From: Nitrososphaerota archaeon
Lineage (GTDB): Archaea; Thermoproteota; Nitrososphaeria; Nitrososphaerales; Nitrosopumilaceae
Assembly (NCBI GenBank): GCA_021323705.1
Contig: JAJPKL010000041.1
Coordinates: forward strand, 264 to 64,263
Reading direction: 5' to 3'
DNA: 64,000 nucleotides
Part shown: positions 2,980-43,715 of the stretch, one piece after another
How the letters are laid out: each line of letters begins with the position of its first letter
Position numbering within the stretch: position 1 is the stretch's first letter
Translations under genes and position numbers: made by a program
Notes under the pieces: generated by a model
What the model saw: the letters and a program-made list of their open reading frames with translations, nothing else
What the model was told of the DNA's origin: nothing
Database searches by the model: none

Positions 2980-4284
2980 TTGTTGAATGTATTAACCATA
3001 GCAGGTTCTGATCCGTCTTCTGGCGCAGGCATTCAGGGAGATATAAAGACGTTCACGTCTCTTGGCGTGTACGGGTTTGCTGTTGTCACCGCACTGACAA
3101 GCCAAAACTCTTCCAAGTTCTTCAAGTCAGAGCCTGCATCACCTGACATCATAAAAAGTCAGATAAGATCAGTCATTTCAGATTTCAAGATAGACGCAAT
3201 CAAGATAGGAATGGTCTACGACAAAAAAACCATTAAAACAATTTACAACGAATTGAAAAATGTCAAGGTACCAACTGTTCTTGACCCAGTCTTCAGATCA
3301 ACGACTGGCGGCGTTTTGTTGCATCCTGACGCAATTTCTGATTTCATAAAGTTCTTGATTCCCATTTCACATATCATCACGCCAAACATACCAGAGGCAG
3401 AAAAGATTGCAGGCATGAAAATAAAGTCTATGAATGATGCAAAAAAAGCTGCCCTCAAAATAAATTCCCTAGGAGCAAAAAATGTCGTAATCAAAGGAGG
3501 TCACATGAGAGGCAAGAAGGTTGTCGACCTTCTACTTGAAAACAAGAGATTCCATCTCTTTTCCCAAAAAAGACTTCCAAGGGAGAGTCATGGCGGAGGA
3601 TGTATATTTTCTGCCGCCCTTTGTTCAAGTTTGGCCAAAGGGGAGAGCCTGCCAGAGTCAGTCAGGCATGCGCAAGAGATCTCACTTGAGTCTATCAGAG
3701 GAGCTGCAAGGGTAGGCAGGGGGTTTTCCATTGTAAGACAGAAAAGTGTAGACATGATAGAAAAAAAACTTTCAGATGCAATGCAGAAATTTATCGAGAT
3801 TGACGGAATTTACAACTACATACCAGAAGTGCAGACAAACTTTGTCTACTCCAAGCCCAACCCCAAAGTCATCTCGGACATACTTGGACTTGAGGGCCGC
3901 TTGATCAAAGTGGGAAGTTCGGTTCAGCCAGTAGGAACGCTCAAGTATGGTGGCTCAAGACATGTAGGAAACGCGGTCTTGGAAGTTGCAAAAAAATTTC
4001 CTTCGGTCAGGTCTGGCCTGAACATCAAGTATGATACAAAAACAATCAAGAAAGCAATTGCAAAGAGATTTTGCGTCACATACTACGACAGGACATCAGA
4101 GCCAGTCATTTCCAAGCATAAGGAAGGAAAGACGATATCGTGGGGAATCAAGTCTGCCCTCTCAAAGATGAAGGTGCCTCCTGATGTGATATACCACACA
4201 GGTGATCTTGGAAAAGAGCCGATGATCCTGATATTTGGCAAGTCTCCAAAAGATGTCCTGACAAAGCTTGGCAAGATTACGTAG
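2980..4284 (+). CDS. thiDN: Bifunctional HMP/HMP-P kinase with C-terminal ThiN (thiamine-phosphate synthase) domain
   Basis: IAGSDPSSGAGIQGD, ITPNIPEAE, HGGGC motifs, then ThiN-type IPEVQTNFVY...GGSRHV...GKEPMI. Confidence 0.93.
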   Translation: MLNVLTIAGSDPSSGAGIQGDIKTFTSLGVYGFAVVTALTSQNSSKFFKSEPASPDIIKSQIRSVISDFKIDAIKIGMVYDKKTIKTIYNELKNVKVPTVLDPVFRSTTGGVLLHPDAISDFIKFLIPISHIITPNIPEAEKIAGMKIKSMNDAKKAALKINSLGAKNVVIKGGHMRGKKVVDLLLENKRFHLFSQKRLPRESHGGGCIFSAALCSSLAKGESLPESVRHAQEISLESIRGAARVGRGFSIVRQKSVDMIEKKLSDAMQKFIEIDGIYNYIPEVQTNFVYSKPNPKVISDILGLEGRLIKVGSSVQPVGTLKYGGSRHVGNAVLEVAKKFPSVRSGLNIKYDTKTIKKAIAKRFCVTYYDRTSEPVISKHKEGKTISWGIKSALSKMKVPPDVIYHTGDLGKEPMILIFGKSPKDVLTKLGKIT

Positions 4285-4332: not shown

Positions 4333-5034
4333 ATGAAGGCTGTAATTTTGGCCGGAGGTCTTGGAACAAGACTTCAACCCTACACCACATTTCTTCCAAA
4401 GGCAATGCTTCCACTCGGCGACAAGCCACTGCTAGAACACTTGATTGAATGGGTAAAGGGCAACGGCGTTGATTCATTTGTGCTGTGTGTCAGTTATCTG
4501 AGAAAAACAATACAAGATTATTTCGAGGACGGGAGCAGGTTTGGTGTAAAGATAGAGTATGCCGTTGCAGACAGGCCGCTTGCAACTGCAGGCCAGCTAA
4601 AGACAGCGCAAGAGTTTCTTGATGACACATTTGTCTGCGTGTATGGAGATTCAATTTTTGAGTTTAGCTTGAAAAACATGATTAATTATCACAAAAAGAA
4701 AAAGGCCTTTGTCACGATGGGTCTGTACGAGTACAAGACAAAGCTTCCCTATGGTTTCATAGAGATGGACAAGACAAACCGTGTCAAGTCATGGCAGGAA
4801 AAGCCAGACGTCAAAGGAAACATCAACATCGGGTGCTATGTGATGGAGCCCGGAATTCTCAACCTTATCCCGGAAGGCAAGCCCTACGGAATGGATCAGG
4901 TCATTCGCACTGCTCTTGCCAAGAAGCACAGGGTTACAGGATATCCAATAAAGAAAGGCTTTCTTGACATAGGTGACAAGGCATCCTACCGACGCGCCTA
5001 CCAGCACTATTTGGAAAGGCTTGGCCAGATCTGA
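4333..5034 (+). CDS. Sugar-phosphate nucleotidyltransferase (single NTP_transferase domain)
   Basis: AVILAGGLGTRLQP, PKAMLP, YGD motifs; no LbH tail. Confidence 0.9.
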   Translation: MKAVILAGGLGTRLQPYTTFLPKAMLPLGDKPLLEHLIEWVKGNGVDSFVLCVSYLRKTIQDYFEDGSRFGVKIEYAVADRPLATAGQLKTAQEFLDDTFVCVYGDSIFEFSLKNMINYHKKKKAFVTMGLYEYKTKLPYGFIEMDKTNRVKSWQEKPDVKGNINIGCYVMEPGILNLIPEGKPYGMDQVIRTALAKKHRVTGYPIKKGFLDIGDKASYRRAYQHYLERLGQI

Positions 5035-29124: not shown

Positions 29125-29182
29125 GACTGGAAGTACCGTGTGTTCTAGATGGTATAAATTAGAGTTACTTTATCGACTGCTT

Positions 29183-40656: not shown

Positions 40657-41274
40657 TTATTTATACCACTCTTGGGCTATTTTTTGCACTTGATTTATGT
40701 ATGATTTGAGAGCGGGGGCTTTTCCATCTCCGGCATTCATTCCTTCTGCAAGAACTCCGCGCACGTCTGAATATCCCATGAACTGAAATTCGGTCTTGCC
40801 AAGTGACAATGCATGTTCATACGATGCCATGGGCTCTTTCCCATAAAATCCTCCGCTTGAAACAAGCACCAATGCCTTTTTGTGTTTCATCAAACCAACA
40901 TATTTTCCATCTTTGACATCCCATGTCTTTCCCTTTAGCATTACAGAATCAAACCAGGCTTTTACAGGTGCAGGCATTGAGAAATTAAACATCGGATAAG
41001 CTACAACCACAATGTCTGCTGATGTCAGTTGTTCAGTCATGCGGTCCATCTTTTCAATAGATTTTTGTTGTCGTGATGTAAGGCCTTGTCCCAGATAGTT
41101 TCTTTGGATGTATGCTGCCAAGTTTTCTTCCAAGAAAAGGTCTGGCACGTCCATTGAAATATTCAGCTCTTCGATGTCAGAGTTTTTTATCTCCGATCTA
41201 AATGCGTCTACTAGTTTCTTTGTGTTTGATCTCTCATTTCTTGGCGTATAGTGAACAAGTAGTGTCTTCATCAA
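40657..41274 (-). CDS. azoR: FMN-dependent NADH:quinone oxidoreductase/azoreductase (AzoR/AcpD family)
   Basis: SNTKKL, VVAYPMFNFSMPAPVKAWFD, LVSSGGFY, FMGYSD. Confidence 0.9.
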   Translation of the reverse strand: MMKTLLVHYTPRNERSNTKKLVDAFRSEIKNSDIEELNISMDVPDLFLEENLAAYIQRNYLGQGLTSRQQKSIEKMDRMTEQLTSADIVVVAYPMFNFSMPAPVKAWFDSVMLKGKTWDVKDGKYVGLMKHKKALVLVSSGGFYGKEPMASYEHALSLGKTEFQFMGYSDVRGVLAEGMNAGDGKAPALKSYINQVQKIAQEWYK

Positions 41275-41276
41275 AT

Positions 41277-42221
41277 CTACATTCCCAGTTGCTTTCTCAA
41301 TATTCTGGCAACGTTTCTAATCGTTACGCTACTAACACCTGATGCCTTGGCTATGTCTTTCTGGGTGGCTTTTTCCTCGTTTATTATGCCAGACATGAAT
41401 ACAGCAGTTGCTGCAAGTGAGACAGGATTTTTCCCATCTGTTAATCCCCTCCCGTGTGCCTTACTGAGTATGTCTAGCGCGTCTCTTTTTGCTTTTTCAC
41501 TGAAACCTACCATCGTTCCTATCTTTGATACAAATTCCAAGGGATTAAACGACTCTACCTGCAATTCCAACGATTTGACAAGCACTCTATAGTGTCTTGA
41601 GAGATCCTTAAAGGAGACGTTTCCAGCCTCTGCAATTTCTTGGAGTGTCCTAGGCACATTAGATTCTCTGCAGGCCACATAAAGTGCCGAAAGAATCATT
41701 CCAGATATGGTCCTTCCTCTAATGATGTTCTTGGTTAACGCCTTTCTGTACAGATATGCAGCTCTTTCTATGACAGCATCTGATATCTCCAATTTTGACT
41801 GGGCGCTTTCCATGATTACAAATGCCGACCTAAGATTTCGTTCCGAGGAGTTTGCCTTACTCCTGCTATCCCATGTTCGCAGTCTGCTGAAGGTATACTT
41901 CATGTATGACGATATTGAGTTTCCAGAGGCATCCCTGTCTGCATTCCCAATCACTGTAGAGAGTCCCTTGTCGTGTATTGATAAAGTTGAAGCAAGTCCT
42001 GTTCTAGAATTTTGCGCATAATCTTCCATTGTAAAAGATCTCTGTTCAGGACCCAAATCCTCGACTTTATCTGCAAGCACAGAGCCACAACTCGCGCATA
42101 GGATCTCCCCTCTAATACTGTCAGTTACTAGCGGGCCATGCGAGTTTCCACTGGCAGGACATTTCTCAGTCCTTGACTGGAATACAAACTCTTGTCTGGG
42201 GGTCTTATTACTAACTATCAT
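41277..42221 (-). CDS. tfb: Transcription initiation factor IIB paralog
   Basis: Zn ribbon C..H...CASCG, EDLGPE, two cyclin repeats, GVSSVTIRN. Confidence 0.93.
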   Translation of the reverse strand: MIVSNKTPRQEFVFQSRTEKCPASGNSHGPLVTDSIRGEILCASCGSVLADKVEDLGPEQRSFTMEDYAQNSRTGLASTLSIHDKGLSTVIGNADRDASGNSISSYMKYTFSRLRTWDSRSKANSSERNLRSAFVIMESAQSKLEISDAVIERAAYLYRKALTKNIIRGRTISGMILSALYVACRESNVPRTLQEIAEAGNVSFKDLSRHYRVLVKSLELQVESFNPLEFVSKIGTMVGFSEKAKRDALDILSKAHGRGLTDGKNPVSLAATAVFMSGIINEEKATQKDIAKASGVSSVTIRNVARILRKQLGM

Positions 42222-42224
42222 TTG

Positions 42225-42255
42225 TATAGTTACTATATACTTGAAAGTATTTAAA
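42225..42255 (-). promoter_or_regulatory. TATA (TTTAAATA, 42255-42248) + 13-bp palindromic operator (42237-42225) of tfb-azoR
   Basis: TATAGTWACTATA palindrome 10 nt downstream of TATA, 3 nt before the ATG; same layout at 42785-42815. Confidence 0.7.
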
Positions 42256-42334
42256 ATATCAAGTTAATCCATGTATATTAGATTAACTTTCGGTAAGTGG
42301 TTTGTAAGAATCACTTTAGAAGAAGCAGTGAAAG

Positions 42335-42742
42335 CTATTCGGATTTTTTTGGTTTTGAATAAATTTCTTTTAAAATTTTAGGTTTGCCATCCTTGAATAT
42401 GTCTTTTGCACAATACTGCATGGAATAAGCTGCCATAGCCTCAAGTACTGGTTTTAGCGCAAGCCCCTTTTTTGTCATGGAGTATTCTATCTTAACCGGC
42501 GTTCCAGGGTAAATTCTCTTCTCAATTAGACCATTTTTTTCCATCTCCCTCAACCGGGCAGACAACGTCTTTGGATTTATTCCCTCAATTGACTCCAAAA
42601 ACTCGTTGAATCTATGCTGTCCAAGTCTTGTCATGTTACGGATAATATGAATAGTAAATTTTTTACCAATAATTTTAAACGTGTTATCGATGGGGCATGT
42701 CTTTAGAGAGTCAAGAACAATTTTACATTCTTCGTCTGTCAA
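42335..42742 (-). CDS. HxlR/DUF24 (MarR-type) winged-helix regulator with N-terminal Cys
   Basis: CPIDNTFKIIGKKF, RFNE...GINPKTLSARLREMEKNGL...KIEYSMTKKG. Confidence 0.92.
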   Translation of the reverse strand: MTDEECKIVLDSLKTCPIDNTFKIIGKKFTIHIIRNMTRLGQHRFNEFLESIEGINPKTLSARLREMEKNGLIEKRIYPGTPVKIEYSMTKKGLALKPVLEAMAAYSMQYCAKDIFKDGKPKILKEIYSKPKKSE

Positions 42743-42784
42743 CTTACCATCCTCTCATCTAATTTCTTTATAGAAACTTTCCAA

Positions 42785-42815
42785 TTTAAATACTTACCTT
42801 TCTATAGTTACTATA
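42785..42815 (+). promoter_or_regulatory. TATA (TTTAAATA) + 13-bp palindromic operator TATAGTTACTATA (42803-42815)
   Basis: Identical 13-mer and 10-nt TATA spacing to the tfb promoter. Confidence 0.7.
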
Positions 42816-42825
42816 AGAAAGTAAT

Positions 42826-43161
42826 ATGAAATGCGAATCAGAAAGATGCGACATAGAACATGCAACCTGTTCGTGTAGTTCTGAGATGGAATGTGGCGGT
42901 TGCGGTTGTGAATCAGAAGATCCCATAAACCGCGTGATCAGCGAATGGCACCAGGCCTTCCATGACGCCGTACACGAGGCACAGGTTGAACGACTCAAAA
43001 AGAGAATTGAGGCAAACTTTGGACCCACCATGGACAAAATTGCAGATGCGATGGTTGAAACCGCAAGCAAGGTTTTCCAGTCCATGCTGGTACAATCAGA
43101 AAGCAAAAAAGAACTTGGAGCAAAGTTGCAAAAGATATTTTCTGAAACAGGTAGGAGATAA
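42826..43161 (+). CDS. Hypothetical protein with Cys-rich N-terminus and helical C-terminus
   Basis: 7 Cys in the first 28 aa (CSCSSEMECGGCGC), then amphipathic helices. Confidence 0.8.
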   Translation: MKCESERCDIEHATCSCSSEMECGGCGCESEDPINRVISEWHQAFHDAVHEAQVERLKKRIEANFGPTMDKIADAMVETASKVFQSMLVQSESKKELGAKLQKIFSETGRR

Positions 43162-43200: not shown

Positions 43201-43715
43201 TTATTTCTTGTCTGCAACCTTTTGTTTTCTAGATATCATTAGAGATAAAGTTGCATATAGACCAATGAATGCTATTTGAAAGTACTCTATTTGAGGGATG
43301 CTTGCAATACCCCGTGGTGGCGGCCCTCTTGGAAAGTGTGGTATATTTTCGCCACCTGTCCAAGTCCACTCTGAGACATATTTCCAGGTGTAATGTTTTC
43401 TGGTACATGCGCTGTGGGTATGCTTCCAAATAGACTGTGGGTATGAGTAGCAAACCACAGTGCAGTAAATACTACGGTTCCAACGATTCCAATAATTTGC
43501 CATATTCTACCCCATCGCTTTATGACAGGAACTGCCCAAAAAATTTGTAAAATGCCTCCAACTAGGAACAGTATTCCTTCATCTACCTCTCTTGATATTG
43601 ACATTGGAACCATCATCAAGTGCAATATTCCTGCAATTACGCTAGTTGCAGCAGCAACAATCGAGACTAGTAAAATTTTACGGTCTTTAACTAGAGTTTG
43701 ACTCATCTTCCACAA
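43201..43715 (-). pseudogene. Membrane protein gene split by an apparent single-base frameshift near 43355-43362
   Basis: ORF 43287..43715 (3 TM) shifts into frame of 43201..43503, which supplies PHFPRGPPPRG linker and a fourth TM helix. Confidence 0.6.

Follow-up and report, generated by a model that had tools for sequence, protein, structure and literature searches.

The hxlR locus

A 64-kb stretch of DNA from a Nitrososphaerota archaeon (contig JAJPKL010000041.1; hereafter the window, with a GC content of 0.41) carries hxlR, the gene of a regulator of the DUF24/HxlR family, between two promoters that share a 13-bp palindrome, here called P1. One of these promoters precedes the gene of a paralogue of the transcription initiation factor TFB (tfb) and a downstream reductase gene (azoR). 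The other precedes the gene of a small cysteine-rich (Cys-rich) protein. We present evidence that P1 is probably the operator recognized by the HxlR protein. The features on which the argument turns are the following, with coordinates counted from the first letter of the window.

40657..41274, minus strand: azoR, an AzoR-like FMN-dependent NAD(P)H quinone/azo reductase with a flavodoxin fold (Pfam Flavodoxin_2, 1.3e-35)
41277..42221, minus strand: tfb, a TFB paralogue of 314 aa (Pfam TFIIB, 3.1e-30), first gene of the proposed operon
42225..42237, minus strand: candidate operator copy 1 (P1), TATAGTAACTATA towards tfb, an exact match at about -16 to -4 from the tfb ATG
42238..42247, minus strand: 10-nt spacer CTTTCAAGTA between TATA box and P1 in the tfb promoter
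42248..42255, minus strand: TATA box TTTAAATA of the tfb-azoR promoter, starting 34 nt before the ATG
42335..42742, minus strand: hxlR, a YodB-like DUF24/HxlR-family winged-helix regulator of 135 aa with a TTG start (Pfam HxlR), the proposed P1 binder
42785..42792, plus strand: TATA box TTTAAATA of the Cys-rich gene promoter, near-symmetric
42793..42802, plus strand: 10-nt spacer CTTACCTTTC, which on the other strand reads GAAAGGTAAG and adjoins the TATA box upstream in the hxlR direction
42803..42815, plus strand: candidate operator copy 2 (P1), TATAGTTACTATA, an exact match 10 nt 5' of the Cys-rich open reading frame (ORF)
42826..43161, plus strand: Cys-rich protein of 111 aa, with some eight cysteines near its N-terminus; the gene is a partner of hxlR across Nitrososphaerota

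A search of the whole window finds two exact copies of TATAGTTACTATA, at 42225-42237 and 42803-42815, and the sequence does not occur in 100 dinucleotide shuffles of the window. Tolerating up to two mismatches adds a single match, at 29160, which is at chance level (expected 0.85). At both promoters flanking hxlR, P1 is a perfect 6-1-6 dyad that starts exactly 10 nt 3' of the TATA box TTTAAATA. The resulting 31-nt arrangement, TTTAAATA-N10-palindrome, is present twice in the window (42225-42255 on the minus strand, 42785-42815 on the plus strand), against an expectation of 0.01. The minus-strand promoter has the order TTTAAATA-CTTTCAAGTA-TATAGTAACTATA-CAA-ATG, with 3 nt from P1 to the tfb start codon; the plus-strand promoter has the order TTTAAATA-CTTACCTTTC-TATAGTTACTATA-AGAAAGTAAT-ATG, with 10 nt from P1 to the Cys-rich ORF. 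A first-pass annotation of this DNA had described the two palindromes, their common TATA box, these distances and the position of the promoters on either side of hxlR, and all four points are confirmed here.

The arrangement is not a generic promoter property of this genome, because even relaxed patterns match just these two sites in the window (TATA-N5-TATA, expected 0.48; TTWAWATA-N10-TATA, expected 0.03); an explanation of this kind was therefore rejected. The consensus box TTTAWATA is itself scarce, with 4 copies in the window versus 6.9 expected. Besides P1, the two promoters have in common the context ACTT-N5-TTTAAATACTT, that is, ACTT-N5 before the box and CTT after it, and ACTT-N5-7-TTWAWATA occurs in the window at these two promoters only (expected 0.14).

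For most genes of the window, a TATA-like box precedes the start codon by 27-35 nt, a spacing that suggests leaderless mRNAs, and the tfb box, at -34, conforms. The tfb mRNA is probably leaderless as well, the distance from TATA box to ATG being that of other apparently leaderless genes. P1 lies in this interval, beginning 10 nt past the box and ending 3 nt before the ATG.

The HxlR protein

The product of hxlR matches the Pfam family HxlR (PF01638) with an E-value of 3.6e-24 (84.9 bits; cut-off 20.8). Its best match in the PDB is YodB (5hs7, 2.9e-18), followed by HxlR (5.9e-16), HypR/YybR (5.5e-14) and QsrR (4hqe, 8e-12). The features that characterize the family are present, namely a winged-helix domain, a Cys at the N-terminus of helix alpha1 and a second, C-terminal Cys. 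The reactive N-terminal Cys of the family is Cys6 in YodB, Cys14 in HypR and Cys5 in QsrR. Upon alignment to 5hs7, Cys16 of the archaeal protein corresponds to YodB Cys6 and Cys111 to YodB Cys101. Cys16 sits in a C-P-I-D motif and does not vary in any of the 121 sequences compared (the query and 120 homologues), and Cys111 is kept in 93% of the same set. In YodB, Cys6 and Cys101 sense quinones and diamide (PMC8063818, PMC6798810). By analogy with YodB Cys101, Cys111 may join the two subunits through a disulfide.

The start of helix alpha4 carries the motif [NS]PKTLS, which aligns with YodB S46-L50 around Lys48, a residue of the YodB DNA-recognition helix alpha4 (PMC8063818). The presence of P1 goes along with this motif. 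The association was examined in loci found through the HxlR protein, i.e. loci that had not been selected for the palindrome. P1 lies within 200 nt in 27 of the 33 loci whose HxlR has [NS]PKTL versus 2 of the 16 in which it is missing (Fisher p 4.8e-6, a value that ignores shared ancestry). The other helices read INAK(V/I)LS in Nitrososphaera-type orthologues, ISTKTLS, or VTQRILT in Bacillus.

Conservation of P1 among hxlR loci

A scan with the HxlR protein, restricted to one genome per species, yields 47 thaumarchaeal loci, the closest coming from uncultured Nitrosopumilaceae and Nitrosotalea metagenome-assembled genomes (MAGs), which assigns the window to a Nitrosotalea-like ammonia oxidizer. 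The palindrome, with two mismatches at most, is found at the same two positions relative to hxlR in L001-L019, L021 and L046. About 20 orthologous Nitrosotalea-like and Nitrosarchaeum loci have TATA-N10/11-palindrome at matching places; the spacing is mostly 10 nt, and 11 nt in L011, L012 and L016. In an alignment of 18 tfb promoters, the most conserved columns are those of TATAGTAACTATAC (plus CAAATG) and of the TATA box, and the DNA right after the hxlR stop codon is unconserved. Many tfb promoters carry the 15-bp dyad GTATAGTAACTATAC. Conservation in orthologous Nitrososphaerota promoters, a check that the first-pass annotation had named, is thus found, at a fixed 10-11 nt from the TATA box. 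The same scan also returned HxlR homologues of Bacillus, Priestia and Ureibacillus (L048-L050), which have another dyad, GTAACAA-N12-TTGTTAC; they were set aside as uninformative.

At the Cys-rich promoter of the orthologues the TATA...TATA arms are kept while the inner five nucleotides vary (GTGAC, GTGAG, GTGGC, TCTAA, TCTAG). Because the arms persist while the centre differs, the predicted functional core of P1 is TATA-N5-TATA, often GTATA-N5-TATAC, with a preferred GTWAC centre and an optimum of (G)TATAGTWACTATA(C). Two other candidate cores were rejected. The first-pass annotation had pointed to a YodB-style box, TACT-N7-AGTA, overlapping the second P1 copy. That box exists, at 42809-42823, but in orthologues other sequences stand in its left arm (GACT, GAGT, GGCT, TAAT) and the tfb site is devoid of it, so that it is incidental. 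A further dyad, AACTAT-N7-ATAGTT, spans the tfb ATG. L010-L015 have lost it (ATGATATCT), and a duplication that carried the promoter and the first tfb codons to pirin, SDR and mini-ORF genes better accounts for its broad distribution (see below).

In the usual gene order the Cys-rich gene diverges from hxlR, which is followed by tfb and azoR. The tfb-azoR order is retained in L003-L009 and L019, and the Cys-rich gene is paired with hxlR in L002-L006, L018, L021, L023-L033, L039 and L040. L018 is rearranged: azoR, followed by tfb, diverges from hxlR, and the Cys-rich gene lies downstream of hxlR. There azoR, tfb and the Cys-rich gene each have a TATA-N10-P1 of their own; judging from this locus, P1 follows its putative target genes. 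In L010-L017, an ORF of 27-28 aa (e.g. MIKSQHKHQWTITSRHWQCSTCGKTYG in L010) stands behind the same promoter in place of the Cys-rich gene. The tfb copy of P1 stays perfect where the Cys-rich gene is degraded (L005, L007, L009) or replaced (L010-L015). Among the orthologous loci compared, hxlR is the only gene constantly linked to P1. In the cultured Ca. Nitrosotalea okcheonensis, hxlR diverges from the Cys-rich gene, whose promoter reads TTTATATA-CTTACTATTC-TATAGTTACTATA-AGAAAGTAAT-ATG.

The spacer CTTACCTTTC is conserved more deeply than P1 itself. A GAAAGGTAAGTATTTAAAT block is kept upstream of hxlR in all Nitrosotalea-like loci, and a closely similar block, with TATATAAAT replacing TATTTAAAT, lies upstream of hxlR in the Nitrososphaera-type locus L028. 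The conserved GAAAGGTAAG-TATTTAAAT block suggests that hxlR shares the near-symmetric TATA box of the Cys-rich promoter, using it in the opposite direction with a leader of about 20 nt and a GAGAGG ribosome-binding site before the TTG. In that case P1 would lie upstream of the B recognition element (BRE) of hxlR.

Recovery of the site by a motif-only scan

A metagenome collection was scanned with the DNA pattern alone, TTWAWATA-N10-TATAGTWACTATA, which gave at least 119 loci. In 36 of the 119 matches listed, the site is no more than about 200 nt from the gene of an HxlR homologue. The downstream gene, again among the matches listed, encodes a TFB in at least 22 cases and the Cys-rich protein in at least 6; others are a 28-aa ORF, a pirin (Pfam 4.5e-36), a short-chain dehydrogenase (SDR), a DUF2798 protein and a 276-aa winged-helix protein, and a thioredoxin gene divergent from hxlR also stands behind a P1 promoter.

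Three of the loci, L076, L143 and L156, encode HxlRs that are 32-38% identical to the query, on contigs with a GC content of 0.28-0.33, one of them with HdrA/MvhD neighbours. They keep the perfect palindrome, a divergent small Cys-rich ORF and, in HxlR, the [NS]PKTLS motif. The finding of P1 beside so distant an HxlR in another archaeal lineage implies that the regulator-site pair is older than Nitrososphaerota. It points to an ancient subfamily of archaeal HxlR proteins whose DNA specificity is fixed, ranging from Nitrosopumilaceae to an unrelated, low-GC anaerobic lineage.

The pirin, the SDR leader and a mini-ORF fusion begin with ATGATAGTTA (MIV...), like tfb. This shared start indicates that the promoter, together with the first tfb codons, was copied before other genes by duplication. 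The copied start forms an N-terminal fusion on pirin (L063, L087, L088, L109, L132) and on a mini-ORF, and L161 is also among such loci. At the SDR genes (L093, L148, L157, L162) it forms a leaderless upstream ORF of 16 aa, whose TGA overlaps the TTG start of the SDR.

The conserved ORFs of 27-28 aa occur at L130 (after the site at 4706-4736, minus strand), L101, L122, L147, L151, L163 and L010-L017, opposite hxlR in one subclade. An example is MMSQKQHEHKWAVVSHHWQCGICGKTYG. They carry His-x-His and CxxC and match no family; the product looks like a mini zinc-knuckle protein.

P1 as the probable operator of HxlR

The comparisons show P1 to be a conserved cis-element, fixed 10-11 nt past a consensus TATA box. 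It is physically linked to this type of HxlR across Nitrososphaerota as well as in at least one lineage of other archaea, and it precedes a recurring set of redox and electrophile-defence genes. We therefore favour the interpretation that P1 is the operator of the adjacent HxlR/DUF24 regulator, which would be a YodB/QsrR-like thiol-based sensor acting as a repressor; on present sequence evidence this is probable rather than certain. The first-pass annotation had proposed P1 as a candidate HxlR operator, and the proposal is strengthened by its conservation, by its following rearranged targets, by its recovery beside HxlR when the motif alone is searched for and by its correlation with the recognition-helix motif, as well as by the YodB-type cysteines of the regulator and the AzoR-like reductase of one target operon. 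The accompanying claim of a small regulon holds for the window, where it would comprise tfb-azoR and the Cys-rich gene, but across relatives the predicted regulon is larger, adding thioredoxin, pirin, SDR, DUF2798 and mini zinc-knuckle ORF genes. The predicted target set (AzoR-like reductase, thioredoxin, pirin, SDR, Cys-rich proteins) fits a thiol/electrophile stress regulon of the kind controlled by YodB and QsrR (PMC6798810).

In the proposed mechanism, the reduced HxlR dimer would insert its two recognition helices ([NS]PKTLS) into successive major grooves on the TATA arms, as the half-site centres, about 10 bp apart once the G/C flanks are included, would allow. The position of P1 between the TATA box and the expected start site is compatible with repression. 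The region from about -16 to -4 is that of archaeal RNA polymerase recruitment and DNA opening, and an operator downstream of the TATA box that blocks the polymerase is the classic mode of archaeal repressors such as MDR1, LrpA and Phr. Because P1 lies in this interval, bound HxlR would permit the TATA-binding protein (TBP) and TFB to bind and would prevent either polymerase recruitment or the opening of the promoter. Once the invariant Cys16 is oxidized or S-alkylated, perhaps forming a disulfide with Cys111 of the partner subunit, the helices would shift and let go of the DNA, much as thiol oxidation releases YodB from its DNA (PMC8063818). Release would derepress tfb-azoR and the Cys-rich gene. 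The perfect, near-invariant tfb site would impose tight repression, and the Cys-rich site, with its variable centre, a weaker one.

A further step can be put forward only as a speculative extension. HxlR would gate an alternative TFB, such that electrophile, oxidant (or nitrosative) stress would free P1 and induce the TFB paralogue, which would redirect RNA polymerase to a second tier of promoters. The ACTT-N5-TATA-CTT context could be the signature read by this paralogue, giving a feed-forward loop.

Alternative explanations

Several observations weigh against the assignment of P1 to HxlR. The genomes have several HxlR paralogues (L026 and L044, for instance, come from one MAG), and 6 of the 33 loci with the helix motif do not have P1 within 200 nt, in a test that takes no account of phylogeny. 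The sequencing runs that contain the window sequence are soil and mine DNA metagenomes, with no RNA runs. TATA-N10-TATAGTAACTATA also precedes an operon for a DUF7557 (ribbon-helix-helix-like) antitoxin and a PemK-type toxin at no fewer than 30 loci from another archaeal lineage of low GC content, and no HxlR gene is close to them; owing to these cases, sequence alone cannot name the binder. At those loci the antitoxin is the likelier binder, and the site is probably an antitoxin operator of convergent sequence. A second conserved element also clusters at the locus, ACTTACC/GGTAAGT, of which three of the eight window copies fall inside the 560-bp hxlR locus:

42292..42298, minus strand: ACTTACC element ahead of the tfb promoter, some 37 nt 5' of its TATA box, the first part of the conserved block ACTTACC-N4-GTTAATCT (18-locus alignment)
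42742-42748, plus strand: ACTTACC/GGTAAGT copy over the hxlR TTG start
42792-42798, plus strand: ACTTACC/GGTAAGT copy between the TATA box and the palindrome

The element also stands upstream of hxlR in L024-L035. Nitrosopumilus loci have it as the full palindrome ACTTACC-N4-GGTAAGT next to hxlR, and the promoter of the Cys-rich operon of L025 has ACTTAC-N5-GTAAGT instead of P1 (4651-4667). HxlR itself, or a second factor, could bind this element. Together with the toxin-antitoxin operons, which have the same 13-mer at the same promoter position, it speaks for a model in which P1 is the operator of another DNA-binding protein encoded elsewhere, its proximity to hxlR stems from co-regulation of the genes next to hxlR rather than from HxlR binding, and HxlR might bind ACTTACC/GGTAAGT. 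We regard this model as unlikely: 36 independent loci anchored by the motif (among the matches listed) adjoin HxlR, some of these HxlRs being as little as 32-38% identical, P1 tracks the HxlR recognition helix with no other DNA-binding gene consistently linked, and P1 is kept where the Cys-rich gene is lost. A model of comparably low probability retains HxlR as the P1 binder and makes it an activator or a dual regulator rather than a simple repressor. B. subtilis HxlR and HypR, of the same family, are activators (PMC3351151), which also counts against simple repression, and at the divergent promoter P1, seen in the hxlR direction, precedes BRE/TATA, from where it could conceivably serve activation or autoregulation. 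However, P1 is downstream of the TATA box in every target promoter, at or just before the expected start, whereas the activating box of HypR is at -53 to -95 (PMC3351151), and the closest solved relative is the repressor YodB.

P1 and ACTT-N5-TATA-CTT might together be a specialized core-promoter signature read by the downstream TFB paralogue, defining an autoregulated alternative-TFB class instead of a repressor site. The common ACTT-N5-TTTAAATACTT context, the rarity of TTTAWATA boxes in the window and the fact that tfb is the best-conserved target would agree with this. Yet P1 and HxlR occur with no adjacent tfb in Nitrosopumilus, in Ca. N. okcheonensis (L174) and in L143/L076/L156, and a perfect dyad of 13 nt is typical of the site of a dimeric winged helix-turn-helix protein. 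We know of no TFB that reads palindromes between TATA box and start site, and consider this explanation quite improbable. Since the 31-nt copies are mutually inverted and bracket hxlR at a distance of about 580 bp, they could also be taken for the inverted terminal repeats of a small mobile hxlR cassette, or for a chance repeat. The comparative data led us to reject this origin, which we hold to be very improbable indeed: single copies stand before pirin, SDR, thioredoxin and DUF2798 genes with no hxlR, the distance to the start codon is fixed, synteny is stable across about 20 genomes and the chance expectation is 0.01.

Target genes and neighbouring elements

The TFB paralogue scores 297 bits with the NCBIfam model for transcription initiation factor IIB, under the cut-off of 384. 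Its zinc ribbon (residues 21-45) reads C-P-A-S...H...C-A-S-C, with C-x6-H and CxxC instead of two CxxC pairs, and its Pfam Zn_Ribbon_TF score of 28.4 is narrowly under the cut-off of 29. The C-x6-H ribbon is also seen in a metagenomic TFB orthologue (L113). The best NCBIfam matches of the azoR product are models for FMN-dependent NADH-azoreductases, under their cut-offs. azoR starts 2 nt past the tfb stop codon, and the two genes are predicted to form an operon.

The Cys-rich protein belongs to no Pfam or NCBIfam family. It has 47 homologues, all thaumarchaeal. Their cysteine cluster (first ~30 aa) is variable and missing in some, and the C-terminal ~75 aa are strongly conserved (WHxAFxxAxHEAQVERLKKRI..FGPTMDK...KLQKIFSE) and predicted to form one long helix. 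The AlphaFold model, of low confidence (predicted local distance difference test 68, predicted template modelling score 0.30), has a small hairpin and one long helix. A few homologues are tagged SEC-C metal-binding. L001 is the closest relative, with 94% identity in HxlR, and its Cys-rich gene seems to be disrupted (3768-3917): beyond residue 13 the ORF is divergent, and a portion of the gene has its match on the other strand. The palindrome persists at this locus (TATAGTGACTATA). In Nitrosopumilus-type loci an ORF of about 45 aa precedes the Cys-rich gene and overlaps its start (L025, 4663-4810; ATGTATGGAATG). Contigs from marine sediment and vent metatranscriptomes cover the Cys-rich operon of L025, which is therefore transcribed; they give no usable start site.

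Beside the Cys-rich gene lies a gene for a membrane protein (43287-43715, minus strand) with weak Pfam DUF7475/DUF6056 matches and no palindrome in its promoter. The gene at the same position in Ca. N. okcheonensis (L174, 6434-6850) is annotated DoxX. The DNA before the tfb TATA box contains an inverted repeat, AGTTAATC...GATTAACT (42262-42269 and 42281-42288, 11-nt spacer). The corresponding region of relatives (42262-42288 in the window) reads as two direct repeats, TTAAYYTGATAT, and the repeat might represent either the terminator region of hxlR or an additional regulatory site. At the toxin-antitoxin loci mentioned above (e.g. L141, 5243-5819; also L054, L058, L066, L158), a 75-aa DUF7557 gene overlaps a 104-aa PemK/MazF-like gene.

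Comparison with known systems

Among characterized regulators, B. subtilis YodB, of the MarR/DUF24 family, represses azoR1, yodC and spx. As proposed here for HxlR, it acts through a dyad operator over the target promoter (PMC8063818, PMC6798810) and has an AzoR-type FMN reductase among its targets (PMC6798810). Regulators of this family usually have such a dyad operator next to their own gene, as P1 is to hxlR, and regulons of quinone, azo or electrophile detoxification enzymes. Unlike the core TATA-N5-TATA of P1, the YodB box is TACT-N7-AGTA (PMC8063818), and the archaeal system differs further in its TATA/TBP/TFB promoter and in its putative targets, a TFB paralogue and a Cys-rich protein. 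QsrR of Staphylococcus aureus, a YodB homologue and quinone-sensing repressor, belongs to the same family and has a solved DNA complex (4hqe). Its box, in work by Ji and colleagues (PNAS, 2013), is said to be GTATA-N5-TATAC, the same form as GTATAGTAACTATAC, which we treat as an unconfirmed lead only. The QsrR regulon includes quinone reductases, a nitroreductase and dioxygenases (PMC6798810), and YodB and QsrR alike control azoR1-type quinone reductases (PMC6798810, PMC3351151). In contrast to the present case, QsrR is bacterial, with a single sensing Cys and no general transcription factor as target.

The archaeal repressors MDR1, LrpA and Phr have the same operator position, between TATA box and start site, and SurR, MsvR, RosR and OxsR are redox-responsive regulators of archaea. 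These proteins belong to families other than HxlR (ArsR/MDR1, Lrp, TrmB, PadR-like). The link to oxidative or thiol stress is shared, for example, by RosR (PMC3443676) and by a thiol-based regulator of the TrmB family in Haloferax volcanii (PMC9426492). No characterized archaeal regulator or regulon of the HxlR family and no thaumarchaeal operator was found in the searchable literature. The Haloferax regulator is known as OxsR.

Paralogues of TFB used under stress are likewise non-housekeeping factors under stress control; further stress-specific examples are TFB3 of Sulfolobus and TFB2 of Thermococcus. Haloarchaea also make use of TFB paralogues (PMC2396416). The paralogue described here differs from these in that its own promoter carries a predicted operator of the thiol-sensor type and that it is predicted to be co-transcribed with a detoxifying reductase. 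No such wiring is described in the literature searched. An archaeal system of the YodB/QsrR type would thus be new, and the TFB paralogue as its best-conserved predicted target appears to be the unusual part, making a cascade from sensor to general factor possible.

Ammonia-oxidizing archaea are globally important nitrifiers, genetically intractable and sensitive to peroxide, and to our knowledge they have essentially no experimentally defined pairs of transcription factor and operator. The locus offers a precise, testable pair, a protein of 135 aa and a site of 13-15 bp, with a predicted signal (a thiol-reactive oxidant or electrophile) and defined targets, and the same layout in the cultured Ca. 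Nitrosotalea okcheonensis makes it directly testable. If the HxlR-gated model is correct, it would represent the first defined sensor-operator-general-factor cascade in these organisms. Control of a TFB paralogue by such a sensor would illustrate how sensors of bacterial type are linked in archaea to a eukaryote-like basal transcription machinery. The HxlR-gated TFB would then be an archaeal counterpart of the redox-controlled alternative sigma factors of bacteria, such as that of the RsrA-SigR system.

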